Shown here piece after piece: positions 5,408-63,673 of a stretch of 64,000 nt of DNA. The notes under the pieces are model-generated. The model had not been told where the DNA came from, made no database searches, and saw only the letters and a program-made list of their open reading frames with translations. Location of the stretch: positions 1 to 64,000 of IMG/VR virus record IMGVR_UViG_3300032257_000005; one strand, given 5' to 3'. How positions within the stretch are numbered: position 1 is the first letter of the stretch; every line of letters begins with the position of its first letter. This stretch comes from a virus (Duplodnaviria; Heunggongvirae; Uroviricota; Caudoviricetes). The position numbers and the translations under genes are program-made.

Positions 5408-6085
5408 TTAATCCATAAATTGTAAACGTTTAAATATTTTACGTGCTTTAATGCAATCATTATTACAATATTCTGCAACTTTTTCATACTCACCATCTTT
5501 AATAGCTTGCCATACCATTGAACCATCAAAACCATCTTTACCTTCAATACCTAACAACTTACATAGGTTATCCATGCTGATCATTTTAGTAGAATCCCAT
5601 TCATGCATCGTATCGAATACACGATCTGACCACGGCCTTGCATCATGATAAAGAGGTATGGTTGGATGAACATTATTAATAACAGACCGTTTCCAGATAT
5701 ACTTTAAATCAAATCCGCAAATATTATGGCCTATCATCATAGGTATACTCATCCCGATAGCTTTACTAGCAGATTTATAAAACGTTATTAATAAACCAGC
5801 TTCAGATTCATCTAAATGTCGCATAACGTTTACAGGTGGTTCATCATCAATAGCATAACTAATACAAATTATCTCGCCGTAATTAGCATCTAGTGAAGTC
5901 TTGATCCATTTAGTTTCAGCATTCTTATCTGCATTAGCTATCTCAGTTGCAAACCATTTATCAAGCGTTTCCTGTTTCTTAATATTGCCGGGTGGATTTA
6001 AATTATCAATTATTTCTTTTTTAAATGTTTCAACAATTCCTTCTTGCTGGCATGGAATTGATTCGATATCTATGGTGAAATTCAT
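5408..6085 (-). CDS. 3'-5' exonuclease, DnaQ-like / PolB-exonuclease-related
   Basis: N-terminal Exo I-like motif MNFTIDIESIP (D-x-E). Later motifs ...ICGFDLKYIW... and ...EYCNNDC... (Y-x(3)-D) fit the fold of stand-alone PolB-type exonucleases. Confidence 0.55.
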   Translation of the reverse strand: MNFTIDIESIPCQQEGIVETFKKEIIDNLNPPGNIKKQETLDKWFATEIANADKNAETKWIKTSLDANYGEIICISYAIDDEPPVNVMRHLDESEAGLLITFYKSASKAIGMSIPMMIGHNICGFDLKYIWKRSVINNVHPTIPLYHDARPWSDRVFDTMHEWDSTKMISMDNLCKLLGIEGKDGFDGSMVWQAIKDGEYEKVAEYCNNDCIKARKIFKRLQFMD

Positions 6086-6103
6086 TTCATAACTCCCCTT
6101 TAA

Positions 6104-6790
6104 TCAAAATGAAATATCGTCATCAAAGTTACTTGGCATTGCATTAGGTGCAGGTTGCTGTTGTGGTGCAGGATTTTCAGACATAACCGGCATTTCATCT
6201 GGCAAAGCTGCGGCTGGTGGTTGTTCTGTTTTACTTTCACCTATTAATTCTTTCCATTCATTACTTTCTTTTATTTGTTTCTGCATACCATCAGATAACG
6301 TTTCAAATGTTTTCATATCAAAATCATCAAAATCAATAAACACTAATGGATTTATAGCTTTGGGTTTTTCCATACCTTCTATACATGAAATAACTGATGC
6401 AGGTTTAGCTTTCATTTTACCTTTGCTATTAGGTGAATGAATTATAGTCATTAAGCCGGGAGCATTAAGCATTTTTGAAATATCAAAATCTTCAGCTTCT
6501 TCATCAGAAACAAAATCCTTACCTCGCCATGTTACAATTCGTGCGCGTAGATTACCTAATTCGCTCATAGTTAAAGTTGGAAATTCAGCAATAATAAAAG
6601 GGCGTTGTACGCCTTTATCATCTGCTTCCATTAAACAACTAGTAAGCTCATACATCAAGCAAATTTTATGCTGATTTTTACTGTACATTTCGTTGTAAGT
6701 TGTACCTAAATCAATGATACGAATTAATCTACAAAAATGACTTCCTTCTGGTGCTAGTTGGAAATCTCCACTGTTTACGTGTGCTTTCAT
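6104..6790 (-). CDS. single-stranded DNA-binding protein-like (acidic C-terminal tail ...NFDDDISF)
   Basis: The C-terminal D-D-D-I-S-F closely mimics the conserved SSB or T7 gp2.5 acidic, aromatic-terminated tail. A Pro/Gln-rich linker precedes it. The gene sits next to the exonuclease. Confidence 0.45.
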   Translation of the reverse strand: MKAHVNSGDFQLAPEGSHFCRLIRIIDLGTTYNEMYSKNQHKICLMYELTSCLMEADDKGVQRPFIIAEFPTLTMSELGNLRARIVTWRGKDFVSDEEAEDFDISKMLNAPGLMTIIHSPNSKGKMKAKPASVISCIEGMEKPKAINPLVFIDFDDFDMKTFETLSDGMQKQIKESNEWKELIGESKTEQPPAAALPDEMPVMSENPAPQQQPAPNAMPSNFDDDISF

Positions 6791-9409: not shown

Positions 9410-9880
9410 TTAATTCCAATTTTCTCTCAATTTTACTTTCTCAAATACAGTTTTATGACCTGCAATATTATTACATTCTTTATGCGCTAATACTTTATTT
9501 TCCATTCTATTACTACCACCGTGTATTAAGCTTAATAAATGTTCTTCAGACATTTCATTGTCATTCATTTCCTGATTACAATAAAAACATTTATTACCAT
9601 CACGCGCTAAAAGTTGTCTTATTTGTTTTGATACATTTCTTTTAGTTGAATTAAATCTACCATCCCATTTTTTAGCTGTTAAAAAACAATCAATAGCTTC
9701 TGTTACAAATGGCGCGCTAACACTAATACCTCTTTTACCTTTATAAATAACACCAGTACCATGTTTACAATTAAACCTTAATAACTCATAAGGATTTGTT
9801 GCAGGTATTATTTCAGCACCTAATTGTTTTAACCATTTTTCAAAATTATTAATTCTATTAGTGCCTAATCGTCTAATCAT
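9410..9880 (-). CDS. HNH endonuclease
   Basis: C-terminal ...CFYCNQEM...EHLLSLIHGGSNRMENKVLAHKECNNIAGHK is an HNH motif with Cys pairs. Confidence 0.6.
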   Translation of the reverse strand: MIRRLGTNRINNFEKWLKQLGAEIIPATNPYELLRFNCKHGTGVIYKGKRGISVSAPFVTEAIDCFLTAKKWDGRFNSTKRNVSKQIRQLLARDGNKCFYCNQEMNDNEMSEEHLLSLIHGGSNRMENKVLAHKECNNIAGHKTVFEKVKLRENWN

Positions 9881-28057: not shown

Positions 28058-28453
28058 ATGAAAAAAGAATTACATTTAACAAAAAAAGATTTTCGTATTG
28101 AATGGTTTTCCGGTCAAGGTGCTGGTGGTCAGCATAGAAATAAACATCAGAACTGTTGTCGTATAATTCATAAAGAAACGGGATTAAAAGCACAAGGCAC
28201 TGAATCTAGAGAAAGACAATCAAATCAAAGAACAGCATTTACCAGACTTGCTAAATTAGTTATTGCTCATTATTACGCTGAAGATGAAAAAATAAGAATA
28301 AAAGCAGATGAAGTAATAAGGAATTATCACGGCGTTAGAAATGAAGTACATGATAAGGCTAGTGGGTTAAAATTATCATATAAAGATATTGTAGAAAACG
28401 GCAATATTGGAAAGATGATTGAAGCAAGACGTAAAATAATGGGATGCGAATAA
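28058..28453 (+). CDS. GGQ-motif peptidyl-tRNA hydrolase, ArfB/PrfH-like (release-factor catalytic domain only)
   Basis: ...FSGQGAGGQHRNKHQNCCRIIHKETGLKAQGTESRERQSNQRTAFTRLAKLV... matches the RF-1/ArfB GGQ-domain consensus (G-x-GGQHVNK...RSQ..NR..A...L). At 131 aa it has no codon-recognition domains. Confidence 0.65.
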   Translation: MKKELHLTKKDFRIEWFSGQGAGGQHRNKHQNCCRIIHKETGLKAQGTESRERQSNQRTAFTRLAKLVIAHYYAEDEKIRIKADEVIRNYHGVRNEVHDKASGLKLSYKDIVENGNIGKMIEARRKIMGCE

Positions 28454-28684
28454 ATGTCAGACGATAAAGATAATGTAGTTATGTTGAATGGATACACACG
28501 TTTAGATATTCCTGCTAATCGAGTATTAGAAGGTGCTAAAGATCAATTAAAAGATTGCATAATAATCGGATGGGATAAAGAAGATAAACTATACATAGCA
28601 AGCAGTACAGCTAAGACGGGTGATCTTATGGTATTAGTAAAATTAGCTGAAGATGATTTATTAAGTTATATGCGTGGGGATTAA
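28454..28684 (+). CDS. hypothetical protein
   Basis: ORF only. Confidence 0.3.
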   Translation: MSDDKDNVVMLNGYTRLDIPANRVLEGAKDQLKDCIIIGWDKEDKLYIASSTAKTGDLMVLVKLAEDDLLSYMRGD

Positions 28685-33768: not shown

Positions 33769-33867
33769 ACGGGAGTGGTGGAAATGGCAGACACGCTATA
33801 AGGTAGTGATGATAAAAGCATAGGCTGGTGCTTCATCGTGCAGGTTTGAATCCTGCCTTCCGTACCA
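33769..33867 (+). tRNA. non-canonical 99-nt tRNA-like gene (acceptor ACGGGAG/CTTCCGT with one G-U pair, T-arm GCAGG-TTTGAAT-CCTGC, discriminator A, CCA encoded); anticodon not assignable
   Basis: Acceptor and T-arm pairings are exact and a 3-bp D-stem (GTG/CAC) is possible. The body is ~10-20 nt too long for any standard class. A 5-bp stem (AAGCA/TGCTT) closes an 8-nt loop TAGGCTGG. Confidence 0.35.
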
Positions 33868-33888: not shown

Positions 33889-33963
33889 GTCGAGTTCATC
33901 TAACGGTTAGGATATCAGGTTTTCAACCTGAGTATGGGAGTTCAATTCTCCCACTCGACACCA
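33889..33963 (+). tRNA. tRNA-Glu (anticodon UUC)
   Basis: Clean cloverleaf: acceptor GTCGAGT/ACTCGAC, anticodon arm TCAGG-TTTTCAA-CCTGA (anticodon TTC), T-arm GGGAG-TTCAATT-CTCCC, discriminator A, CCA encoded. Confidence 0.8.
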
Positions 33964-37723: not shown

Positions 37724-39241
37724 ATGAAGATGACTAACTTAACAGATAAAATAGTTGATATACTAACTAAGCATGATATTGATTTACATCGTGTAGAAGC
37801 TAGTGTTAGTAAAGAGATCATAGGTATGATAAATGGTCTTTCTGCACAATTGCGTAAGCGTATTTTAAAATTTGATCCAACTAGTGTAAAAAATCCTATC
37901 TTTATTAATAAACGATTAAAACAACTTGTGAGTGTTGCCGGTGGTGATATAGATCAGGTTTATGCAACACTTGAGAAAACGTTAGCGGCTGAATTAAAAG
38001 ATATTGCATTATTAGAAGGTAGAACAACAACAGATACAATAAACAGAGCTATGCAGGTTGAACTTGCAAGTAAACATGTTAATGCATCTAAATTAAAAGC
38101 GTTAGCTAGTCGATCTATGATTGAAGGCGCGGTTGTTAAGTCGTGGTGGAAAAATCAAAGCACATGGTTAAAAGATGCCTTTAAGCGAAACATGCAAGAA
38201 GGTATTATAGGCGGTGAAGATATAGGTACATTAGTTAGGCGTATTCGTGGTACAAGAGAATCAGGTTTTACTGATGGGTTAATGCGTACACCTACACACG
38301 CTGCAAGACGTTTAGCAAGATCTGCCGTTATTACTGTTGCTAATGATGCGCGTGTTATGACGTTTGAAGAAAATGCTGATGTAATAAAAGGGATGCAATG
38401 GCTCAGCACTTTTGATTCTAGAACAAGTGACCAGTGTATCGCTCTTGACGGACAATCTTGGTTCCTCGACGGGAGGAAGATGAAAGGTACAACCGCAGAC
38501 TGGCGTGGCCCTCCGCCAGCGCACTGGAATGCTTATTCAGAAGGAACATTAATCACTACCGAAAAAGGCCAAGTACCAATTGAAAATATTAAAATTGGCG
38601 ACAGTGTTCTAACACATAAAGGTCGATACAAAAAAGTATCAGCTACTATGAGTAAGCGCAATGACACGAACTTCATCAATCGTCTTACAACGGATTCAGG
38701 TCGTATTTTTTTTGCAACAGATGATCATCCAATACTTGTTGTTGATAGAGGATGGATTAGAATTGATGATATTATAATTAATGATAAATTATTTGAATTA
38801 AATAATGGTATTAAATGGAATACCCCATTAGTTATTGACATACATAAAATAGATTATATAGGAATGGTTTATAATCTTTCAGTTGAAGATGATGAAAGTT
38901 ATATTGCTGAAAATATAGTTACGCATAATTGCCGTTCAACTATCGTACCTATTACAAAAACGTTTTCTGAAATGAATCGTAATCCAGATCTGAAAGGTAA
39001 ATTAAAAAAAGCAGATAAAGCTACACAAAATACATTACGACAAAGTGCTGATGGTGGTGCTAGTGCAAAACTAAATTATGAAGGTTGGTTAAAGAAACGA
39101 CCAAAATCAGAACAGATAGAAGTGCTTGGTCGTACAAAATATAAATTATGGAAAGAAGGTAAGATAGGGTTTACAGATCTTATAGATCAGTCGCATAATT
39201 CGATATCTACAGATGTTCTATTAAAAAGATTTGATAAATAA
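37724..39241 (+). CDS. head morphogenesis protein, Mu F / SPP1 gp7 family, interrupted by a mini-intein
   Basis: Family motif ...MQWLSTFDSRTSDQCIALDGQ...GPPPAHWN | CRSTIVPI... is split by a ~133-aa insertion with intein blocks. Confidence 0.65.
   Translation: MKMTNLTDKIVDILTKHDIDLHRVEASVSKEIIGMINGLSAQLRKRILKFDPTSVKNPIFINKRLKQLVSVAGGDIDQVYATLEKTLAAELKDIALLEGRTTTDTINRAMQVELASKHVNASKLKALASRSMIEGAVVKSWWKNQSTWLKDAFKRNMQEGIIGGEDIGTLVRRIRGTRESGFTDGLMRTPTHAARRLARSAVITVANDARVMTFEENADVIKGMQWLSTFDSRTSDQCIALDGQSWFLDGRKMKGTTADWRGPPPAHWNAYSEGTLITTEKGQVPIENIKIGDSVLTHKGRYKKVSATMSKRNDTNFINRLTTDSGRIFFATDDHPILVVDRGWIRIDDIIINDKLFELNNGIKWNTPLVIDIHKIDYIGMVYNLSVEDDESYIAENIVTHNCRSTIVPITKTFSEMNRNPDLKGKLKKADKATQNTLRQSADGGASAKLNYEGWLKKRPKSEQIEVLGRTKYKLWKEGKIGFTDLIDQSHNSISTDVLLKRFDK
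38531..38929 (+). mobile_element. mini-intein (~133 aa, no homing endonuclease domain) inside the Mu F-like protein; +1 Cys at 38930
   Basis: Block A-like SEGTLITTEKGQVPIENIKIGDSVLT, block B T-x-x-H (FATDDHPILV), block G VYNLSVEDDESYIAENIVTHN followed by Cys. Flanking exteins reconstitute the PP-x-H-x-N-C-R motif. Confidence 0.6.
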
Positions 39242-44241: not shown

Positions 44242-44669
44242 AACGTAGATCATTCTTAACAAGTTTAGGTTTAATTGGAGCAGCTTCTTTTACAAAAGCA
44301 TCTGAACACTTGCCAGAAAAAATGATTGAAGCTACTAACGATGAGATATCTAATAGATTTTCAGTAGTTACAAAACCAGTTGAAAATATAACTAATGTGG
44401 ATTTTGGATTAATTATTAATGGTGTTAGCTATCGCACTATTGATTATTCAATATCTTATGAATCAGGTTTTATAATAAACAGAGAATTAAATGCGTCAAT
44501 ATATCTAGATAAGCTATCACTTGATTCCGGTGAAGAAGTAACCGTTGAATTAATACATAAAGAAGTTAATATTCATGAAAAGTTTAACGCCGTTATTACT
44601 CGTACAACAACAAGCATAGGATATGATAGCCCTTTAATTATGGATATAATTTTGAAGGAAGTATCATGA
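44238..44669 (+). CDS. exported protein with a twin-arginine (Tat) signal peptide
   Basis: MKRRSFLTSLGLIGAASFTKASE... has the S/T-R-R-x-F-L pattern plus a hydrophobic core and an A-x-A-like cleavage region. Confidence 0.45.
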   Translation: MKRRSFLTSLGLIGAASFTKASEHLPEKMIEATNDEISNRFSVVTKPVENITNVDFGLIINGVSYRTIDYSISYESGFIINRELNASIYLDKLSLDSGEEVTVELIHKEVNIHEKFNAVITRTTTSIGYDSPLIMDIILKEVS

Positions 44670-46681
44670 AGAAAGCACTTATAACTGGCATCACCGGCCA
44701 AGATGCAGCTTATCTTTCTGAATTACTTTTATCTAAAGGCTATGAAGTTCATGGAGCATCACCACGTAGAGCGTCCGGTAATTATTGGCGGCTACAATCA
44801 ATAGGGATACTTGATGATGAAGATAATCCTAGAGATAAGAATTTTAAATTAAAGTCACTAGATGTTACCTGTAGTTCATCAGTCACCAATATTATTAAGG
44901 ATGGACAATACGATGAAATTTATAATCTCGCTGCTCAAAGTTTTGTTGCCGAATCGTTTAATTCGCCTACAGCGACTTTCAACATCAATGCGATTGGAGT
45001 CCTCAATCTCCTTGAAGCGATTAAAATAAACTCACCAGAAAGTAAATTTTACCAAGCATCAACATCTGAAATGTTTGGATTAGTTAATATGGAGGCACAA
45101 AATGAAGAAACACCATTCCATCCACGTTCCCCTTACGGGGTGGCAAAAGTTGCAGCGCATTATGCGGTATGTAATTACCGCGAAGCATACGGATTATTTG
45201 CGAGCTGCGGAATCTTGTTCAACCACGAAAGTCCCTTGCGAGGAATCGAATTTGTCACAAGAAAAATTACTGATGGAGTGGCAAAAATCATTGCAGGTAA
45301 GCAAGAGAAATTATCGTTAGGTAATTTAGATGCATATCGTGATTGGGGTCATGCAAAAGATTATTGTATAAATAAAGATGTTCCAATGCTTACACCTAAT
45401 GGCTGGAAGTATTTTAATGAATTAAATATTGGTGATGAAGTTATTAACTTTAATCCTGAAACAAATTCACTATCAAGAGATATTATATTACAGGTTGTTG
45501 AACCTAAAATAGATTCATCTAAGAAAATACGTTTAACTGGTAGGTCAATAGATTTAACTTGTACACAAAACCATAGAATTTATTATCAACAAAAATCTAT
45601 AAATTCAAAAGGTGGTTGGAGTGATTGGAAAGTTACAACTGCTAGTGAATTTAATTATAAATTGAATATACTTGAAAATAGATCAAAATATGATTATAGA
45701 TTGCCACATTTTCAAGATTATAATGGTATTGAAAATAACAAAGTAACTGATAATCAAATATATCTTGTTGGTGCTTTATTAGCAGAAGGTCATTTAAGAA
45801 CAATACATAAACAGGGTAGAGGGCATAATGTAACAGTTTCTCAATCTGAAATTGCTAATCCTAGAATACATAATAAAATAAAATCAATACTAGATAATTT
45901 TAATTTTAAATATAGCGAAAGATTAAATAATTCAGGTGTTACTGAATGGGTTATTAATGCAGAAAATACTGAAGATATACTTAAATGGTTTGATAGTAAT
46001 GACTTACATAAAATGCCTACTTGGTGTTTTTCATTATCACAACGACAATCGAAAATATTATTTGATTCAATGATGGATTGTGATGGTTGTTGGGGTTCTA
46101 TGCAATACATTTCAAAACGATATAAATTATTAACAGATTTTCAAACAATAGCAGCAATTAGTGGTTATCAAACAACGAATCCAAAACAAGATAAATTTGG
46201 GTGCTGGAGAATAGCAAGTATTGTACAAAGAAGAAAATACTCATATATAACTAAAGCAGAAGAAATTGATGATGGAATTACAGATGTTTGGTGTATAACT
46301 ACAAATAATGGAACAATTATATCAAGAGATAAAGGATTGATATCAATATCTGGAAATTGTTACGGCATGTATTTAATGATGCAACAAGAAACACCTGATG
46401 ATTACGTATTAGCTACAGGTGTAAAACATTCTGTAAGAGATGTATTACGAATATGTTTTGAACGCTTTGATATGTTTTATCCTGACTATGTTGAAATGGA
46501 TCAACGGTATATGCGGCCTAGTGATGTTCCATTATTATTAGGTGATGCAACTAAAGCACATGAAAAACTTAATTGGCATCCATCATATGATTTTGAATTA
46601 TTAATAACTGAAATGCTTGATTATGATTTAGCGTGTCAAGGTGTCGATGCTATTAAATTGTTAGCGGATAGCTATAAATAA
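44666..46681 (+). CDS. gmd: GDP-mannose 4,6-dehydratase interrupted by a full-size LAGLIDADG intein
   Basis: Exteins [30 protein letters not shown]...[10 protein letters not shown]...FNHESPLRG...RDWGHAKDY | [21 protein letters not shown]...[16 protein letters not shown] are near-collinear with bacterial Gmd. Confidence 0.8.
   Translation: [671 protein letters not shown]
45365..46357 (+). mobile_element. intein with a LAGLIDADG homing-endonuclease domain (331 aa) inside gmd; +1 Cys at 46358
   Basis: Starts [13 protein letters not shown] (block A) and ends ...ISGN. The two dodecapeptide motifs are ...[12 protein letters not shown]... and ...[13 protein letters not shown].... The insertion site lies inside the conserved [9 protein letters not shown]/C-xxMWLMLQ segment. 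Confidence 0.7.
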
Positions 46682-46703
46682 TTACTAAATAGAGGAATAT
46701 TAA

Positions 46704-47348
46704 ATGTTACCACAAACAGGTGAAAGACAAGTTGCAGAACATATCGAAGGTATTAAACCAAACCATCGACAGCGTTATCAATTTGGTATAGATAAAATTA
46801 AAGAACATTTTTGTGCGCTAGAAAGGCCTATTACAATATTGGATGCTGCATGTGGTGTTGGTTACGGTACTATGATGATAGCTGAATCATTAGCTGATGG
46901 ATCTGATTTAAAAGGTAGTGTATTAGGTGTTGATATATTTGAAGGTGCTGTAGAGGCTGCAAAACGTGCATATAAATTAGATAACAATGATTTCATGCAA
47001 TTAGATTTAGGTAATTCTGATTTATGGAATGAAAAAATAGATAATGTCGATGCTATTGTCAGTATTGAAACTATTGAACATGTTAAAGATGCTGAAGATT
47101 TAATAAAGCGATATGCAGAAAAAACTAATTTTCTTATAGGTTCGGTTCCAAATGAAGATGTAGTCCCTTTTAATGCAATTACACATCCATTTCATTTTAG
47201 ACATTATACAAATAGTGAATTTGAAACATTGCTTAACGATTATGGTTTTAAAATAAAAGCGATAGGAACTCAATACGATAAAATTCCCGGCTTTGTTTAT
47301 CCGGGAGATGATGGTTATGGGAACGTTGTTTGTGCTATTAAAGAATAA
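46704..47348 (+). CDS. class I SAM-dependent methyltransferase
   Basis: Motif I ...ILDAACGVGYGT.... Confidence 0.5.
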   Translation: MLPQTGERQVAEHIEGIKPNHRQRYQFGIDKIKEHFCALERPITILDAACGVGYGTMMIAESLADGSDLKGSVLGVDIFEGAVEAAKRAYKLDNNDFMQLDLGNSDLWNEKIDNVDAIVSIETIEHVKDAEDLIKRYAEKTNFLIGSVPNEDVVPFNAITHPFHFRHYTNSEFETLLNDYGFKIKAIGTQYDKIPGFVYPGDDGYGNVVCAIKE

Positions 47349-47349
47349 T

Positions 47350-47814
47350 ATGAAAACTTTATTAGAAAGATTTAATGAAAAATGGATACCTGTAACAGAA
47401 AGTGGTTGCTGGATATGGACTGCCTTTGTAAATGAAAAAGGATATGGAAAATTTACCAATAATGGTAAAACTTATAGATCACATAGACTTTCATATGAAT
47501 TGTATATTGGTGAAATACCTGATGGTTTATATGTTTGTCATGAATGTGATAATACTTTTTGCGTTAATCCAAATCATCTTTTTTTAGGAAGTCAATTAGA
47601 TAATATACATGATATGTTAAACAAAGGTAGAGGATCAGCACCTCCTTTATTTAAAGGTGAAGATCATTCATTGTCAAAATTAACAGAAAATAATGTGATT
47701 GAGATTCGTAAATCTAAACATATGACACATAGACAATTAGCGGAAAAATATAATGTTAGTAAAAAACTTATATTTAATGTAATACATAAAAAAGCTTGGA
47801 GTCATGTACCGTGA
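47350..47814 (+). CDS. HNH homing endonuclease (paralogue of 51965..52437)
   Basis: ...GCWIWTAFVNEKGYGKFTNNGKTYRSHRLSYELYIGEIPDGLYVCHECDNTFCVNPNHLFLGSQLDN... is the HNH_3 pattern. It is wedged between the methyltransferase and the next gene with overlapping stop/start. Confidence 0.7.
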   Translation: MKTLLERFNEKWIPVTESGCWIWTAFVNEKGYGKFTNNGKTYRSHRLSYELYIGEIPDGLYVCHECDNTFCVNPNHLFLGSQLDNIHDMLNKGRGSAPPLFKGEDHSLSKLTENNVIEIRKSKHMTHRQLAEKYNVSKKLIFNVIHKKAWSHVP

Positions 47815-48671
47815 AAGTAGGTGTTTTCATAACTGAAAATAATCATGAGCATGATAAAATGCTTACTGCTTTTGCAAAAGGATTATGTGCAACAGGAATT
47901 GAACCGATTATATCTAATGTCAATAATTATGTTGATGTTGATATAGCGGTTATTTTTGGCGTATATAAAAAATCAGTACCCATTAGTTTTGCGCGTGGTG
48001 AGATTATGCGTAAACAAACTGAGGCTAATAGATTAACAATTGTTATTGAGAAAGGTTTTATTGATCGTGATGAATATTATATGGTTGGTATGAACGGATT
48101 AAATAATCGAGCTTATTTTAATAATGATGATTGTGATGATTTAAGATGGAATCAGTTAGATAAAAAAATTAAACAAATGAACTTAAACGGTAAGAATATT
48201 GTCATTTGTGGACAAGTACCATCTGATGCAAGCGTACAGGCTGTTGATATTGTGGATTGGTATGGATTATTGATAAAACAAATACGTGATATATCACAAA
48301 GACCGATAGTATTTAGACCGCATCCGTTAGCATTAAACACAACACCTGAATTTATTGGCACGACACGATCACACAAGACGCTACAGGAGGATTTCGATGA
48401 TGCCTATTGCGTTGTAACCTATAATTCAAATACAGCCGTAGACGCTGTAATAGCCGGTGTGCCGGTTGTTGCATTTGATTGCGGTTCTATGGTTTGGGAT
48501 ATATGCGGTAAATCTGTTAATTCAATTGAATTTCCATTAATACCTTTTGCAAAAGATATTGATCAGTGGGCTAATAATATTGCCTATGCACAATGGAATA
48601 TAGATGAATTCAGACAGGGGTTGCCATTTACTCATTTAATGCAAGTTCTAAAGCAGGAGATAGTTTTATGA
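47796..48671 (+). CDS. hypothetical protein (possible glycosyl/phosphotransferase); start uncertain (GTG 47811 or a later ATG)
   Basis: ORF only. Confidence 0.3.
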   Translation: MESCTVKVGVFITENNHEHDKMLTAFAKGLCATGIEPIISNVNNYVDVDIAVIFGVYKKSVPISFARGEIMRKQTEANRLTIVIEKGFIDRDEYYMVGMNGLNNRAYFNNDDCDDLRWNQLDKKIKQMNLNGKNIVICGQVPSDASVQAVDIVDWYGLLIKQIRDISQRPIVFRPHPLALNTTPEFIGTTRSHKTLQEDFDDAYCVVTYNSNTAVDAVIAGVPVVAFDCGSMVWDICGKSVNSIEFPLIPFAKDIDQWANNIAYAQWNIDEFRQGLPFTHLMQVLKQEIVL

Positions 48672-48964
48672 ATATTCTTGTTAGTATTGGATCTATTGCG
48701 GCTGTTGTTGGTTCTATTTCTGGTGGTATTTATTTTTATGAAAATCGTTTTGAAACAAAAATACACCATGAAGTTACATTAGCTGAAAATGAAAAAAGAG
48801 TTTCAGATCATTTATTAGATTTGCGTATTGATTTGTATGAATCAAGATTAGATAGATTAATTGATAAAAAATCACGCCAGACGATATCACCAAGAGAACA
48901 GCGTATAATTAAACGATTAAATAAAAGCTTAGATATTTTATATAAACGTAAAGAGGAAAAGTAA
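48668..48964 (+). CDS. membrane-anchored small protein
   Basis: N-terminal TM helix. Confidence 0.3.
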   Translation: MNILVSIGSIAAVVGSISGGIYFYENRFETKIHHEVTLAENEKRVSDHLLDLRIDLYESRLDRLIDKKSRQTISPREQRIIKRLNKSLDILYKRKEEK

Positions 48965-49194
48965 TGAATAGAGTTGCACATAATTTATCAGTATCAAGTG
49001 ATTTCATTCAAGATCAATTACATTGGATGCATACATTGTCAGTTGTAATATCTGATGTTAATGATGAAGATAAAACAATTGATCATTCTGAACAAATGAA
49101 CATGACGGTTGAACCTGCTATGAAGCCTGAAGATATTATTAGTGGTTTACGTGCGTTAGCAGATAAGATTGAGGAATACACAGGTGAGGCTTGA
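48964..49194 (+). CDS. hypothetical protein
   Basis: ORF only. Confidence 0.3.
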   Translation: MNRVAHNLSVSSDFIQDQLHWMHTLSVVISDVNDEDKTIDHSEQMNMTVEPAMKPEDIISGLRALADKIEEYTGEA

Positions 49195-50176
49195 TAATGG
49201 GATACTAGATCATGGTTTTAAATTTCCTGATTTAGCTGAATTTCCTGATTACGAAAATGAAGATAGATTTGATGAAGATGTTGATTTATCACCCCTGTAT
49301 AAACATTTTGTTGAAGCAAATGGAAAAGCATTTTTAAAAGAACTATCAAAATACACTAACGTTAATGAGCCTTGGATAAATAAGTTAATGTCTTATTTTT
49401 ACATATACTCTGGTTATGATAGGCATAGCAGTATAATTGATGGTGATTGTTTTTATAATTTATATAACAAAGGAATACACATAACCAGTTTACCTTTTGG
49501 TGATTTAGATGTAAGTAAAACAGTTGATAAATTATTGAATGATCCAGATTGGAAACCTGAACCGGGTACTTATGATCGTGGTGTTTATCTGGATGCAAAA
49601 AATATAGCATTTGTTAATGATAAGTTTAAAAAGGCTGGAATATTGAAAGCGGTAAGTGCTTATTCAGGTGGTTTAAAAGAAGTTAAAAATGTATTTCTTC
49701 ACGTATCAACACCAACAGATTATCATTATAAGCAGTTTATGTCCGATGCTACCACTACACCTAAATGGACTAATTTACATATAGATCCTAAAGAAGATGC
49801 TATGAAGGCTATTGTTTATTTAGAGGATAATGTAGGTGAAGAAAATGGTGCTTTTGGATACGTACCTAAATCGAATAGATTTCTGTATAAAGATTTAGAT
49901 AGTGTTTTTGCAAGAGCTATATCGACAGGTAATTATTGTCGCACTCCTGAAATGCGTAAAAGCGTTTTTAGTTTACCTAAACGATTCAGAATATCTAATA
50001 ACTTTGGTCGATGTATTTTAGATGGAAGTGAAATGTCAAAATATTTTGATGAACGATTTTTACGTGTAACATCTAATATGGGTAACGTATCTATTTTTGA
50101 TGCTGGTGCTGGTATGCATATGGGGGGCAAATGCAAAACAGGACGGCGTATTGCACTTCAGGTACTTATGAAATGA
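49169..50176 (+). CDS. hypothetical protein (335 aa) in the sugar island
   Basis: ORF only. Confidence 0.35.
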   Translation: MRNTQVRLDNGILDHGFKFPDLAEFPDYENEDRFDEDVDLSPLYKHFVEANGKAFLKELSKYTNVNEPWINKLMSYFYIYSGYDRHSSIIDGDCFYNLYNKGIHITSLPFGDLDVSKTVDKLLNDPDWKPEPGTYDRGVYLDAKNIAFVNDKFKKAGILKAVSAYSGGLKEVKNVFLHVSTPTDYHYKQFMSDATTTPKWTNLHIDPKEDAMKAIVYLEDNVGEENGAFGYVPKSNRFLYKDLDSVFARAISTGNYCRTPEMRKSVFSLPKRFRISNNFGRCILDGSEMSKYFDERFLRVTSNMGNVSIFDAGAGMHMGGKCKTGRRIALQVLMK

Positions 50177-50673
50177 TTACACAAAAAGTATTAAAAGAAT
50201 TATTTTTGCATGATGAAGAAAAAGGTGTTCTTTATTGGAAAAATCCTACGTCATTTAGGGTTAAGAAAGGTGAATTTGCTGGAACTGTATATCATGATGG
50301 GAATGTAAATATTCAAATTAAAGGAAAAGTATATAAAAGGCATCGTTTAATTTGGATGTTTAAACATGGCTACTTTCCTAAACAACTTGATCACATAGAT
50401 CGTGATCGAAGTAATGATAGATTAAATAATTTAAGAGAAAGTAACCAATCTGAGAATAATGCAAATAAAGCTAAAACAAATAAAAAAACATCTTCAATTT
50501 ATATTGGTGTTAGTTGGAGTGAATCTCGTAAACGATGGGAATCTAAAGTTATGAAGAACAGAAAAACTTATCATTTAGGTAGATTTAAATGTGAAATTGA
50601 AGCGGCAAAAGCTAGAGATAAGAAAGCAGTAGAATTATTTGGTGAATTTGCAGAGAGGAATTTTAATGAGTGA
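50173..50673 (+). CDS. HNH homing endonuclease with a C-terminal AP2 DNA-binding domain
   Basis: ...KRHRLIWMFKHGYFPKQLDHIDRDRSNDRLNNLRESNQSEN... (HNH), then ...SIYIGVSWSESRKRWESKVMKNRKTYHLGRFKCEIEAAKARDKKAVELFGEFA... (AP2). Confidence 0.7.
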   Translation: MITQKVLKELFLHDEEKGVLYWKNPTSFRVKKGEFAGTVYHDGNVNIQIKGKVYKRHRLIWMFKHGYFPKQLDHIDRDRSNDRLNNLRESNQSENNANKAKTNKKTSSIYIGVSWSESRKRWESKVMKNRKTYHLGRFKCEIEAAKARDKKAVELFGEFAERNFNE

Positions 50674-51376
50674 GTTAAATTTAAATGAAGATGTATTAAA
50701 ACGTAGGGTTTGGAATCAGAGTATTTATGATTCACATATAAAGGATTTCATGTTAGGTCAAACTCCACCATATATCAATAAAGATAGAAATGTTATAGAT
50801 GTTGGTGCTGCTGTCGGATTATATTCTAATTTTTGGGCTGATAAATGTAAAAATATTTATTCGTTTGAAGCGGTAACGCCAGTGTATGAACAACTAAAAC
50901 TAGTTGAAGCCAAGCATGGAAATATGGCTGCATTTAATGTTGCTGTATCTAATTTTGTTGGTAAGGCTGATTTTTGGGTTGATGATAAGCGATTATCTAA
51001 TTCATCATTTAGAGATTTAGTAGGCGGTCAGAAAATTACTGTACCTGTTACAACGATTGATCATGAAGATCTTGGTAAAGTTGGTTTTATTAAGATTGAT
51101 GTTGAAGGTCATGAATTAGATGTTTTGAAAGGTGCTGAAAAGACTATTGAAAAATATCATCCTACTATCATGTGTGAAATTTATCCTAAATTTAATAACG
51201 GTGATGTATCACATACATTTGATTTTTTATTTGATCGTGGTTATAACTGTTACTACAATATTAAAGGTCAAGGTTTAAGTCGGGTTATGGATACAGCGCG
51301 TGGTGTATTGGCTGCTACCAATGAAGGTTTGATTAAACAACACGATGGGGATTTTCTTTTTACTTATGGCAACTAA
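50666..51376 (+). CDS. FkbM-family methyltransferase
   Basis: ...VIDVGAAVGLYSNFWA...FEAV... plus overall FkbM-like length. Confidence 0.5.
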   Translation: MSELNLNEDVLKRRVWNQSIYDSHIKDFMLGQTPPYINKDRNVIDVGAAVGLYSNFWADKCKNIYSFEAVTPVYEQLKLVEAKHGNMAAFNVAVSNFVGKADFWVDDKRLSNSSFRDLVGGQKITVPVTTIDHEDLGKVGFIKIDVEGHELDVLKGAEKTIEKYHPTIMCEIYPKFNNGDVSHTFDFLFDRGYNCYYNIKGQGLSRVMDTARGVLAATNEGLIKQHDGDFLFTYGN

Positions 51377-51974
51377 ATTACAAAATAGTATGTTTATCCA
51401 TATACCAAAAACAGGCGGAAGATGGGTAAACAATATGCTTTTCAAAGCAGTTAAAGGTGCTGAATCTATTGGTGATCCTATTTATGATGCCCATGATTCA
51501 CCTGATATTGATTTACCTGTATTTGCTTTTGTGCGACATCCTATTGAGCTTGCTAATAGCTTATGGTGTCATAGATCAAGAAAGCATAGTAATACACGAC
51601 ATAAAGATTGGAACTGGCAACAAGATATAGAGTTTGAACGTGTATGTGGTGATTCAGATTATAATAAGTATTTTGAAAATGTTGCTGCTAATCCAAAAAT
51701 AATTACTAGTTATTATTATCATTTTATAGGTAAATATAAAAAAGTAAGATTAGGTCGAATGGAAACAATAGCTGAAGATCTTGTTAAGATACTTATTAAT
51801 TATGAAGAATCATTTAATGAAGATTTTATACGTGCTAATGCAATGAATAAGATTGGAAGCGGATCTGATCAGATTAATTTACCTAAAGACATATACAACC
51901 AAATAATGAAAAATGAAGAAGATTTTTGTTTGCAGTTTGGTTATACAGAACAGGAAGAAGTTAATGCATCGTAA
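51366..51974 (+). CDS. sulfotransferase (PAPS-dependent) family protein
   Basis: ...MFIHIPKTGGRWVNN... matches the 5'-PSB loop (h-I-P-K-T-G-T/S). Confidence 0.45.
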   Translation: MATKLQNSMFIHIPKTGGRWVNNMLFKAVKGAESIGDPIYDAHDSPDIDLPVFAFVRHPIELANSLWCHRSRKHSNTRHKDWNWQQDIEFERVCGDSDYNKYFENVAANPKIITSYYYHFIGKYKKVRLGRMETIAEDLVKILINYEESFNEDFIRANAMNKIGSGSDQINLPKDIYNQIMKNEEDFCLQFGYTEQEEVNAS

Positions 51975-52437
51975 ATATAAAAATAAATTAGAATCATTTA
52001 ATGATAAATACGAAGTTGTTGAAGAATTAGGTTGTTGGGTATGGACTGCATCAATATTAAAAGTAGGATATGGTTGCATGAGATGGGATGGTAAGACACA
52101 ATTATCACATAGAGTTTCTTATGATCTGCATAAAGGAAAAATACCAGATGGTATGCATGTTTTACATAAATGTGATAATAGATTTTGTGTAAATCCTAAT
52201 CATCTTTTTATTGGGACAAACTTAGATAATATAAAGGATAGATTATCTAAGAATAGACCAAAAACAGGATGTGTAGGTGAGAAATCTGGTAGAGCAATAT
52301 TATCAGAAGTTGATGTTAATAATATAAGAGCGATAAAAAAATATTGCAAATGCACACAGCAACAGTTAGCAGATATATATAATGTTTCAAAATCATGTAT
52401 AAATCATGCAATTCACTACAATTGGAAACATATATGA
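51965..52437 (+). CDS. HNH homing endonuclease (paralogue of 47350..47814)
   Basis: ...GCWVWTASILKVGYGCMRWDGKTQLSHRVSYDLHKGKIPDGMHVLHKCDNRFCVNPNHLFIGTNLDN.... Confidence 0.7.
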
Positions 52438-53174
52438 ACTACTTAGATAATGATATGCCAAAATGCTTCATTGGTTATGATAGAGCTGAATCTGCGGCTT
52501 TTTATACTTTATGTCATTCAATATGGAGGCGAGCATCAAGACCTGTTCATATTATACCTATTATGCTATCTGAACTTAAAGGTTTGATGTGGCGTGATCG
52601 TGATCCAATGCAAAGCAATGATTTTTCATTCAGTCGATTTTTAGTGCCGTATCTTTGTAATTATGAAGGTAAGGCGTTATTCATAGATGCGGATATGATG
52701 GTTGTTGATGATATTAATAACTTGTTTGATTTGTTTGATGATAGCTATTCAGTTCAATGTGTAAAGCATAATCATGTACCTATAGAAGAAGTAAAATATT
52801 TAGGTAATGTACAAACAAAATATAACAAGAAAAATTGGTCAAGTGTGCTATTATTCAATAATAGTAAGTGTTCTGCTCTCACCCCTGAATACATCAATAC
52901 TGCAAGTGGCTTAGATTTACATCAATTTAAGTGGCTTGATTCTGACAGTGAAATTGGTGATTTGCCTTTGCGTTGGAATTTTTTAGTATCGTACTATCAT
53001 GATTTACCTATAGAGGAAATTAGCTTACTTCACTGGACTGAGGGAGGGGCTTATTTTAATGACTACAAGAATTGTCCATATGCAGATATTTGGCAAGATG
53101 AATATAAAGATATGATTCATGTAACACAACCAGCAAGTGTTCATTATAGTGAAGTATCAGAAAAAATAGTATAG
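52434..53174 (+). CDS. glycosyltransferase family 8-like protein
   Basis: ...FSRFLVPYLCNYEGKALFIDADMMVVDDINNLFD... is a GT8-type DxD region. Confidence 0.45.
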   Translation: MNYLDNDMPKCFIGYDRAESAAFYTLCHSIWRRASRPVHIIPIMLSELKGLMWRDRDPMQSNDFSFSRFLVPYLCNYEGKALFIDADMMVVDDINNLFDLFDDSYSVQCVKHNHVPIEEVKYLGNVQTKYNKKNWSSVLLFNNSKCSALTPEYINTASGLDLHQFKWLDSDSEIGDLPLRWNFLVSYYHDLPIEEISLLHWTEGGAYFNDYKNCPYADIWQDEYKDMIHVTQPASVHYSEVSEKIV

Positions 53175-58722: not shown

Positions 58723-59298
58723 TTATTTATATCTCCAACATAATGCTCTACACCAAGATCCCTGCCAATCTGTACGCCTTCCATATTTTCTATGTAGCTT
58801 TGTCATTTCTGTTAAATTATCCCCACAAATATTATCCCAAATATCATGCCAAACAGCATTATATCTTTTACCTTTTGGTGGTTTCCATTCAAAGGCATCT
58901 GCATTTATAATATTTACACGTTTATCCTTATTATAATATTCAGCAACTAATGAAATAACATCACTGGATTTTTCAATCACTGTTACAGAGGTAACTAAAT
59001 CACTTTTTAATATTTCAGTAAGTGCAACACCAAGACCAAGACCGTTAATTAAAATATCACCACCTTTTTTAGCTTCTCTAATAAACTCATGATGATCTTC
59101 TATTTCTGCTGGCGTATTAGACATAATAGCTGTACCGTTACGCATTAATCGTTTAAATTTTCCGGGCTTAACATATCTTGAACCCATATGAAAAGAAGCC
59201 CTAATATTATAAAGCTTTGCATCATCTTCTGTTATTTCAAAATCTTCTACTGTCCAATTACCTGAATTGCCATTAGGAATATTAATATCTATTTTCAT
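58723..59298 (-). CDS. class I SAM-dependent methyltransferase-like protein
   Basis: ...GGDILINGLGLGVALTEIL... is a glycine-rich motif-I loop followed by an acidic residue. Confidence 0.35.
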   Translation of the reverse strand: MKIDINIPNGNSGNWTVEDFEITEDDAKLYNIRASFHMGSRYVKPGKFKRLMRNGTAIMSNTPAEIEDHHEFIREAKKGGDILINGLGLGVALTEILKSDLVTSVTVIEKSSDVISLVAEYYNKDKRVNIINADAFEWKPPKGKRYNAVWHDIWDNICGDNLTEMTKLHRKYGRRTDWQGSWCRALCWRYK

Positions 59299-62594: not shown

Positions 62595-63249
62595 TATGTA
62601 TATCTGTATATACTTGTACTTGTTTTCTTATCTGATTCATTGCTGGCATATGATAAAAAGATAATCTAAAAAAATAACGCCAACCTCTAGTAGTAGCTGG
62701 CATACACTTATGTAATGTGCTTCGACTAAATTTTAAAATATGTCCTGCCTGTAAAATATCAATAAAACTATCATCAGAAATTTTATCAATTCTTTTTGAT
62801 ACTGATTGCCATACTTTATTTTCATCTACGTCTAAATATAAATCAGTATTCATAAAAGCTGTATTACATAAATCATGTTCGGTATCAATATGACAAATAT
62901 AATGTTTTATATCATTATTCAATGTAGATAAATCAGGTTGTGAACTTCTATCTTTTCTTACAACACCGTCACAATGCCAACCGGGTATACATGGATAAAA
63001 ATCCTGCATTAACATAACAGATTTAGTATCTATTACGGGATGATAACCCATTAAACTATGTCTATATATTTCTTTTTCTACATCTTTTATTATTTTATCC
63101 ATAATATTATTAGTTAATGGCCCTGCATTTTGTCTGCACCACTTCCATGATCCACCATATATCATAGGTTCATCTTGAATAACATGTTGAGATTCAACAC
63201 CAGTAACACTATTTATATATTGATAGTTTGATTTAAATTTATACTTCAT
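62584..63249 (-). CDS. hypothetical protein, possibly 2OG-Fe(II) oxygenase-like (H-x-D ... H)
   Basis: ...CIPGWHCDGV... and later ...HILKF... His residues. Weak evidence. Confidence 0.25.
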   Translation of the reverse strand: MKYKFKSNYQYINSVTGVESQHVIQDEPMIYGGSWKWCRQNAGPLTNNIMDKIIKDVEKEIYRHSLMGYHPVIDTKSVMLMQDFYPCIPGWHCDGVVRKDRSSQPDLSTLNNDIKHYICHIDTEHDLCNTAFMNTDLYLDVDENKVWQSVSKRIDKISDDSFIDILQAGHILKFSRSTLHKCMPATTRGWRYFFRLSFYHMPAMNQIRKQVQVYTDIHSGW

Positions 63250-63673
63250 TTTGTTTTACCATTCTATCGTATAAAACTACATTTACAGTTGCGGCTAAAT
63301 TCATACAACCGTTAGTTGGTATATAAACAGTATCACGACACCATGAAGTAATACGTTCACCTAATGTTGCATCTTCAGCACCAAATATATAAAACGCACG
63401 TTCTGGATGCTTGTATTCACTCAAAGGTATAGCACCTTCAATTAAATCAACTGCAACAGGTACGCAACCATGTGGAATAATATCTTTTAGATTATCAACA
63501 TTAAATAATGGTTTATGCCTAATCTGTTTCATGGTATCAGTTGGAAATGCTTTAAATCGCTTATTTGTATAAGCAATAAATTTAGCATCGTAACAACCAA
63601 CAGCACGTAAAGCTGCACCAACATTAACACCTGATTTCGGATTATCTAATCCTATACATGCATAGCCTCTCAT
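63239..63673 (-). CDS. SPOUT-family RNA 2'-O-methyltransferase (TrmL/TrmH-like)
   Basis: ...YACIGLDNPKSGVNVGAALRAVGCY... (motif 1), ...RAFYIFGAEDATLGERI... (motif 2), ...VYIPTNGCMNLAATVNVVLYDR... (motif 3). At 144 aa it matches the TrmL size. Confidence 0.6.
   Translation of the reverse strand: MRGYACIGLDNPKSGVNVGAALRAVGCYDAKFIAYTNKRFKAFPTDTMKQIRHKPLFNVDNLKDIIPHGCVPVAVDLIEGAIPLSEYKHPERAFYIFGAEDATLGERITSWCRDTVYIPTNGCMNLAATVNVVLYDRMVKQNEV

Follow-up and report, generated by a model that had tools for sequence, protein, structure and literature searches.

A phage protein predicted to join the GGQ domain of class-I release factors to their domain-4 segment

What would a phage do with the catalytic end of a release factor once the part that reads the codon has gone? 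The question is raised by a small gene in a stretch of 64,000 nucleotides (the window; positions 1 to 64,000 of IMG/VR record IMGVR_UViG_3300032257_000005), which is part of an 86,295-bp metagenomic contig (ENA ERZ27251083) from a tailed phage of about 31% GC. The original prediction, made from the sequence alone, described the product as a stand-alone GGQ release-factor catalytic domain of the ArfB/PrfH type, rarely annotated in phages, that hydrolyses peptidyl-tRNA on stalled ribosomes. From sequence comparison the protein, here called mini-RF, is predicted to be a class-I release factor that has lost domains 1 and 2 and retains domain 3, the domain-4 segment and, between them, an alpha7/switch region of reduced length. 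In other words, it is the inserted domain plus the C-terminal flank of that insert's host domain. The gene and its parts are as follows.

28058-28453, + strand: complete open reading frame (ORF), 131 amino acids (aa) plus TAA stop, truncated release factor (mini-RF); from the ORF list, Pfam RF-1 and the start shared by homologues
28058-28276, + strand: RF-PH/GGQ catalytic domain, aa 1-73; from the secondary structure of an AlphaFold2 (AF2) model and RF1/RF2 alignments
28124-28132, + strand: GGQ motif, aa 23-25, codons GGT GGT CAG; from the sequence, inside the family signature SGxGxGGQHRNKHxNCCRIxH
28277-28315, + strand: acidic variable linker, aa 74-86, at the RF switch-loop position; from conservation, predicted local distance difference test (pLDDT) values and the RF2 alignment
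28316-28450, + strand: domain-4 remnant, aa 87-131, two short strands (aa 88-91 and 96-99) and two helices; from a C-terminal profile and conservation

The reading frame runs from an ATG at 28058 to a TAA at 28451-28453, and its start is conserved, homologues beginning at the same M..ELHLTKKDF. Only about 10 residues precede the first domain-3 strand. In the AF2 model the GGQ domain has beta-strands at aa 12-17, 33-38 and 44-47, with the GGQ in the loop between strands 1 and 2, and a helix at aa 53-73 that is the counterpart of RF helix alpha7, some 9-10 residues shorter than in RF1/RF2. The linker that follows has a net charge of -2, pLDDT values of 61-67 and weak conservation in the family; where the family consensus is aligned to the SDIGWGSQ switch-loop segment of E. 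coli RF2, it has no Trp.

The GGQ core of an RF-1 domain, as originally proposed, was readily recovered. Pfam RF-1 (PF00472) matches residues 3-83 at E=1.6e-15, with 57.5 bits where the gathering cut-off is 35, and the peptide that had been quoted as the core corresponds to residues 18-68. A phmmer search of mini-RF against all PDB sequences returned 46 release-factor chains. The single sequence aligns to residues 227-356 of the 371 in Streptococcus mutans RF1, and the family profile aligns to E. coli RF2 residues 232-362 of 365 (E=2.4e-15) and to RF1 residues 229-356. Both the RF1 and the RF2 alignments end a few residues short of the C-terminus and contain one gap of 9-10 residues, at the alpha7/switch loop. 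The proposed absence of codon-reading domains also holds, since the alignment starts only at RF residue ~227-232 and no PCRF domain was found in mini-RF or in the window gene lists (Pfam lists covering most of the larger window ORFs).

The C-terminal part of the protein aligns with domain 4. The remnant bears a near-invariant IRNYHxxRNEVxDxxSG, homologous to the RF1 sequence IRTYNFPQNRVTDHRxG and the C-terminal helix that follows it; within this, IRNYHxxRNEVxD corresponds to RF1 IRTYNFPQNRVTDH, and the mini-RF stretch IRNYHGVRNEVHDKASG aligns with the domain-4 segment made up of the IRTYNFPQxRVTDHR motif and terminal helix. The C-terminal motif IRNYHGVRNEVHDKASGL matches the RF1 motif IRTYNFPQNRVTDHRIGL, and remoter members of the family have IRTYHEPDNRVVDHASGL, which is nearer still to RF1. 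As an independent test of C-terminal homology, a profile (A3) was built from the last ~54 residues only; when compared with the PDB it matched almost exclusively RF1 chains at their C-termini (best 1zbt 316-356, E=1.5e-5). Given the end-to-end alignments with RF1 and RF2 together with the A3 matches, we conclude that mini-RF is domain 3 plus the domain-4 segment. A structural match to the RF-1 domain had been named beforehand as a test of the prediction. Indeed, the AF2 model, which was built on 31 homologues (mean pLDDT 79, predicted template modelling score (pTM) 0.55), has the fold of the GGQ domain, and its 45 best Foldseek matches are RF1, RF2 and mitochondrial RF1/RF1a.

Mini-RF therefore shares domain 3, helix alpha7 and the domain-4 segment with RF1/RF2 over its whole 131 aa, but lacks their ~220 additional N-terminal residues, comprising domain 1 and the codon-reading domain 2 with its PxT/SPF motif. 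In the full-length factors domain 1 interacts with RF3, domain 2 reads the stop codon, and the domain-4 strands complete a beta-sheet with domain 2, as established from RF structures. Mini-RF also lies far under the curated NCBIfam release-factor cut-offs, scoring 46.4 against 370 for prfB and 44.0 against 400 and 40.3 against 423 for prfA. A further difference is a Cys-Cys pair at aa 33-34 (window 28154-28159), in the ..AVRITH strand, where the aligned RF1/RF2 have Ser-Ala or Thr-Ala; the pair is found in at least 180 of 188 family sequences. A split or intron-interrupted release factor was considered and rejected, as PCRF is absent from the window Pfam lists, which cover most of the larger ORFs, and a length of ~124-140 aa is kept in unrelated neighbourhoods.

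How well, then, does the ArfB/PrfH label fit? It stands in so far as mini-RF is of the small, stand-alone, presumably codon-independent GGQ type, and fails in that both scores fall under their cut-offs and neither a basic tail nor a domain 2 is present. ArfB (YaeJ)/ICT1 resembles mini-RF in length and in being a small GGQ protein that stands alone and would not need to read a codon. However, the curated ArfB model NF006718 gives mini-RF 25.1 bits against a cut-off of 100, with its best stretch covering only residues 2-33, and the flexible linker and strongly basic C-terminal helix of ArfB/ICT1 are lacking. In ArfB this helix occupies the empty mRNA channel. In contrast to that defining basic tail, the C-terminal 45 residues of mini-RF have a net charge of +3, and the family median is +1. 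The curated PrfH model TIGR03072 yields 41.4 bits against a cut-off of 166.65 and is matched at only positions 99-169 of 200. PrfH retains a domain-2-type module before its GGQ domain, which mini-RF does not, and pairs operonically with an RtcB-family ligase; together with RtcB2 it rescues ribosomes with a damaged decoding centre. In the mini-RF genome the RtcB gene lies 19 kb off, on the opposite strand. Finally, the likeness to mtRF-R/C12orf65 is confined to the GGQ domain (residues 7-89), and the C-terminal extension and partner dependence differ.

Among phage proteins, the RF-1 domain entries already annotated (PHROG 3122 and 20323; gp204 of Bixzunavirus ScottMcG, 118 aa; gp53 of Tunturiibacter phage Tunturi_4, 115 aa) are likewise small GGQ proteins, of 115-118 aa. 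They are 38-41% identical to mini-RF over the first 66-80 residues only (tblastn, residues 1-66 or 2-80), and the PHROG matches cover just residues 3-67 and 9-72. The C-termini of gp204 and gp53 are unrelated to that of mini-RF and lack the IRxYH..N.V.D domain-4 motif, such that the similarity does not extend over the full length. By contrast, UniProt A0A6J5T9T2, a 164-aa protein of an uncultured Caudovirales phage that carries the automatic name "PrfB protein chain release factor B", is the best structural match in BFVD, 36% identical over 126 alignment columns, and probably belongs to the mini-RF family; a literature search found no study of it. Phages that recode stop codons carry a full-length codon-specific release factor and an alternative code; the window uses the standard code, and mini-RF has no codon-reading domain. 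Stop-codon recoding was accordingly rejected: the window gives dense long ORFs under the standard code, there is no sign of reassigned TAG, TGA or TAA, and reading through TAG or TGA hardly lengthens the longest ORFs.

The family is large. At least 1,201 proteins (90%-identity clusters) matched mini-RF at E<=0.001 in a word-indexed protein search, and the best 120 of these are all 126-160 aa long and 66-100% identical. Since only the best 120 of the 1,201 were listed, the family proper may be smaller than this number. When 1.84 billion representatives (50% identity) were searched exhaustively with a profile, 22 matched at E<=1e-30 and 464 reached E<=1e-10. The best 150 are short without exception (median 133 aa), and the majority span the whole profile. 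In IMG/VR, 403 viral contigs, from ~4 kb fragments up to jumbo phages of 344-374 kb, encode a relative. The remark that phage-borne examples are rarely annotated was inaccurate as to rarity, the family being abundant. In a scan of GTDB with one genome per species, every near-full-length match lay on a contig of a metagenome-assembled genome, and isolates gave partial matches to the GGQ region only. Among 50,697 deposited phage genomes, megablast with 5 kb of the locus found no near-DNA match, and tblastn found no match above 31% identity where at least 80% of mini-RF was covered. The family is thus almost confined to viral contigs and is apparently phage-borne.

Conservation was examined in 188 unique sequences, taken from the family loci as well as from the 120 top protein matches. 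G21, G23, G24, Q25 and R27 are invariant (188/188), and H26, N28, K29, R35, H38, R53 and N56 are each kept in at least 182. Within the domain-4 remnant, at least 92% of the sequences keep each of R88, Y90, H91, N95, V97, D99, S102 and G103; aa 74-86, at the switch-loop position, are variable. Both the catalytic motif and the domain-4 motif are therefore under strong purifying conservation.

The neighbourhoods of the gene were compared by clustering 2,242 ORFs from 105 sequences (104 family loci and the window segment). No neighbouring protein is conserved across 84 family loci, the commonest immediate neighbour occurring in 7, and hence there is no obligate partner encoded alongside mini-RF. 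A conserved partner gene was rejected on the same ground, as no neighbour at any position is common to more than 7 of the 84. What does recur is tRNA. ARAGORN found tRNA or transfer-messenger RNA (tmRNA) genes within 6 kb of mini-RF in 30 of 55 non-redundant loci; 17 of the 55 have at least five tRNAs, one locus has 41, and in 16 a tRNA lies within 150 nt of the mini-RF ORF, often on both sides. The gene in such loci is therefore a protein-coding cassette inside a tRNA array. As a control, none of 80 IMG/VR loci (587 kb) around relatives of the methyltransferase encoded next to mini-RF carries a tRNA, but because the control contigs are smaller and come from different phages the enrichment is probably in part a "large phage" effect. 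An association of this kind has been described in mycobacterial elements, where RF-1-domain genes occur in tRNA arrays alongside Pth and tmRNA (PMC5966550).

In ten array loci of distant relatives (L028, L030, L032, L040, L046, L051, L055, L057, L061 and L076) the mini-RF ORF lies at ~6001-6370 of the extracted sequence; the upstream tRNAs end a few to ~100 nt before the annotated start of the mini-RF match and resume 5-25 nt past the stop. The mRNA would need to be excised from the tRNA precursor transcript, and the excised message could be left with a very short leader. Three IMG/VR contigs have tmRNA genes, with tags ending in ALAA, at most a few kb from mini-RF (L030, 7867-8414; L059, 4020-4391; L075, 91-460), so that two differing ribosome-rescue devices stand side by side. 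Array loci (L034, L043, L055, L067 and others; ORF clusters 2, 4, 6 and 9) also repeatedly encode an AAA_33 P-loop kinase and a DSP/PTP-type phosphatase, as well as a DUF2828/DUF7788 protein, an RNaseH-like protein and a protein of ~190 aa without a Pfam match. The kinase and phosphatase call to mind enzymes that heal RNA ends, a hint that these loci may form part of a larger RNA-repair island.

In the window itself, two genes of related kind are present at a greater distance.

33889-33963, + strand: tRNA-Glu(UUC), about 5.4 kb downstream of mini-RF; ARAGORN, Rfam tRNA 62.8 bits
8183-9397, - strand: RtcB RNA ligase, 404 aa, 19 kb from mini-RF and not operonic with it; Pfam RtcB E=8.8e-122

For the tRNA-Glu, we infer a link to mini-RF at this locus from the family-wide association. 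The presence of RtcB and mini-RF in one genome echoes the bacterial PrfH-RtcB2 theme, though the two genes are 19 kb apart and on opposite strands. Elsewhere in the family RtcB lies within 6 kb of mini-RF in only one of the 84 loci (L050), and a pairing of the PrfH-RtcB type was rejected. No contig name is common to the 28 IMG/VR contigs that carry a close relative of RtcB and the 80 listed of the 403 mini-RF contigs, these contigs being fragments.

Taken together, we consider it probable, if by no means assured, that mini-RF is a codon-independent, ribosome-dependent peptidyl-tRNA hydrolase belonging to a phage toolkit for maintaining translation. The biochemical class is expected rather than surprising: to our knowledge, every characterised GGQ protein binds the A site of a ribosome with peptidyl-tRNA and hydrolyses the ester bond. 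The earlier functional guess of peptidyl-tRNA hydrolysis on stalled ribosomes is reasonable. Mini-RF would enter the A site of a ribosome carrying a P-site peptidyl-tRNA, its GGQ would reach the peptidyl-transferase centre (PTC), and the ester bond would be hydrolysed without codon reading, since a protein that lacks domain 2 must act regardless of the codon. Kinetic selectivity would be the most economical: in competition with ternary complexes, mini-RF would act mainly where the A site stays empty. Its substrates would be ribosomes that have reached the 3' end of a truncated or cleaved mRNA, and ribosomes held up at a codon for want of its tRNA, which could have been depleted, or cleaved by host anticodon nucleases or in phage-induced degradation. 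The outcome would be that ribosomes and tRNAs are recycled and phage protein synthesis goes on. As for the domain-4 remnant, it may dock in the vicinity of H69/h44, or it may serve to stabilise domain 3 or to bind a partner provided in trans. The toolkit would further include tmRNA, the tRNA arrays and enzymes of RNA repair, of which the window's RtcB is one, and this genomic company fits the upkeep of translation under RNA damage.

Several points weigh against this interpretation. Mini-RF has none of the known stall sensors, neither the basic tail of ArfB/ICT1 nor the domain 2 of PrfH or RF, and the 84 loci contain no conserved neighbour that could serve as an ArfA-like adaptor. The model leaves it uncertain whether the domain-4 strands fold alone, without the domain 2 sheet, given a pTM of 0.55 and low confidence in the linker. 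A codon-blind release factor could also harm translation of the phage's own messages. As for the genomic association, beyond the probable contribution of phage size to the tRNA enrichment, no tRNA lies within 6 kb in 25 of the 55 non-redundant loci, among them those of most of the window's closest relatives, and in the window the tRNA and RtcB genes lie at the distances given above, RtcB on the other strand. Lastly, a literature search for phage GGQ/RF-1 proteins found annotation-level mentions only, and no biochemistry or genetics.

A more specific version of the toolkit proposal is tentative, and we would give it a minor chance. Here mini-RF would be a phage-specific rescue factor with a new substrate selection, using domains 3 and 4 to free chains at tRNA-starved sense codons on intact mRNA with an empty A site. 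It would owe its evolution to a partnership with phage tRNA arrays, of which it would be the protein member, against tRNA-targeting host defences or phage-induced tRNA depletion. We know of no efficient handling of empty-A-site stalls on intact mRNA by tmRNA, ArfA or ArfB.

The same features could be explained in other ways. By analogy with mtRF-R/C12orf65, which acts on split 39S subunits and works with the partner MTRES1, mini-RF might hydrolyse peptidyl-tRNA on split 50S subunits or drop-off products rather than on 70S ribosomes. We think this unlikely: the RF1/RF2 matches are stronger and extend over the whole length, whereas C12orf65 matches the GGQ domain only; C12orf65 needs a partner, and no conserved neighbour stands beside mini-RF; and the retained RF domain-4 motif suggests the geometry of the 70S A site.

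Somewhat less likely again is that mini-RF would be the catalytic half of a two-part factor, with a phage or host protein acting as the sensor of ribosome state and perhaps completing the domain-4 sheet. A precedent for such a division of labour is RF2, for which ArfA or BrfA supplies ribosome-state sensing. The near-invariant R88, Y90, H91, N95, V97 and D99 belong to the elements that pair with domain 2 in the full-length factors, and strong conservation of this orphan sheet edge suggests a binding partner. Against a phage-encoded partner, however, no neighbour cluster is conserved in the 84 loci, and the 76-aa ORF that overlaps mini-RF downstream (28454-28684) has no homologue in the other loci and no Pfam or PADLOC match; a host protein might still fill the role.

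The loss of codon specificity with an intact catalytic motif could also describe a weapon, a codon-blind factor that terminates host translation early (host shutoff) or skews termination and readthrough against RF1/RF2, and the gene does sit among small ORFs without assigned function upstream of the terminase and structural genes. We regard this as improbable, since host and phage mRNAs would be indistinguishable to mini-RF and the gene keeps company with tRNA arrays and tmRNA, both of them aids to translation; moreover, no recoding logic applies because the window uses the standard code. Its resemblance to the 3' third of a release-factor gene might suggest that mini-RF is what remains of a captured prfA/prfB in decay, or a decoy without catalytic activity. 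This is very improbable and effectively refuted by conservation: length and sequence are kept across the 188 sequences, the start is maintained, the GGQ is invariant in 188/188, the family occurs in very different phage genomes, and a decoy would not need every PTC-contacting residue.

The remaining features of the window place the gene in an otherwise recognisable tailed-phage genome, with a terminase, portal, scaffold and tail genes, a Mu-F-like head protein with a putative intein, and a number of HNH endonucleases. Mini-RF lies in a long co-directional block of small genes upstream of the terminase and structural genes. The gene directly preceding it encodes a ParB-N/N6-N4 DNA methyltransferase, and small ORFs without assigned function follow. 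A promoter and terminator scan around it gave counts at or modestly above shuffle expectation in this AT-rich DNA. Membership of a defence system was rejected, as PADLOC gave a marginal match only (E=0.004), and exact-sequence look-ups of two left-arm proteins returned no record.

Other observations concern RNA genes and enzymes. Just upstream of the tRNA-Glu, at 33769-33867 (+), ARAGORN reports a 99-nt "tRNA-???" with a 4-base anticodon. The acceptor stem of this element is 7 bp long, its T arm is good, its extra arm is long and a CCA is encoded, but a normal anticodon arm is missing; Rfam gives it no tRNA score, and its fold is no better than those of shuffled sequences (z = -1.07). This may be a tRNA-like element that has degenerated or is otherwise unusual. 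A suppressor tRNA was considered, but lacking Rfam support and a normal anticodon arm it was not used as evidence. The RtcB ORF is directly adjoined by an HNH endonuclease ORF at 9410-9880 (-). A SpoU-family RNA 2'-O-methyltransferase is encoded at 63239-63673 (-; E=4.7e-14), and the ORF at 58723-59298 (-) shows a weak likeness to rRNA adenine dimethylases (E=3e-5, narrowly short of the Pfam cut-off); judged by these matches, the two are candidates for further RNA- or translation-modifying genes of the phage.

In the structural region, the Mu-F-like head morphogenesis protein (505 aa, 37724-39241, +) contains Hint/intein-type domains (PF13403, with faint PT-HINT and Intein_splicing matches), which suggests that an intein is inserted in this head structural gene. 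Between the head and tail genes, at 44666-53174 (+), sugar- and methyl-transfer genes are interspersed with three HNH_3 endonucleases. The transfer genes comprise an epimerase/dehydratase fusion of 671 aa, a glycosyltransferase-like ORF and several methyltransferases. Such a block is unusual in the middle of a structural module and may point to glycosylation of the virion or DNA.

The catalytic module and its general purpose are already known, as are phage GGQ proteins at the level of annotation. Three features appear to be new: the combination of domains 3 and 4, the family's apparent carriage by phages and its placement within tRNA arrays. For bacteria, a 2019 survey of release-factor diversity names RF1, RF2, ArfB and PrfH, without mention of phages or of this architecture (PMC6514570), and a survey of jumbo phages covers PTH2, tRNAs and RNA repair and has nothing on release-factor-like proteins. 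ArfB, ICT1, C12orf65 and PrfH each join the same catalytic domain to another sensor of the broken ribosome, and mini-RF would add an architecture to this series. The family would also be a natural experiment on the RF domain-4 motif in proteins without a codon-reading domain, and a codon-independent release factor of 131 aa could serve in vitro translation and ribosome-profiling work. If active, mini-RF would tie the question of why large phages carry tRNA arrays and tmRNAs to that of how ribosomes keep running when tRNA and mRNA are damaged, whether by host defences or by the phage's own nucleases.
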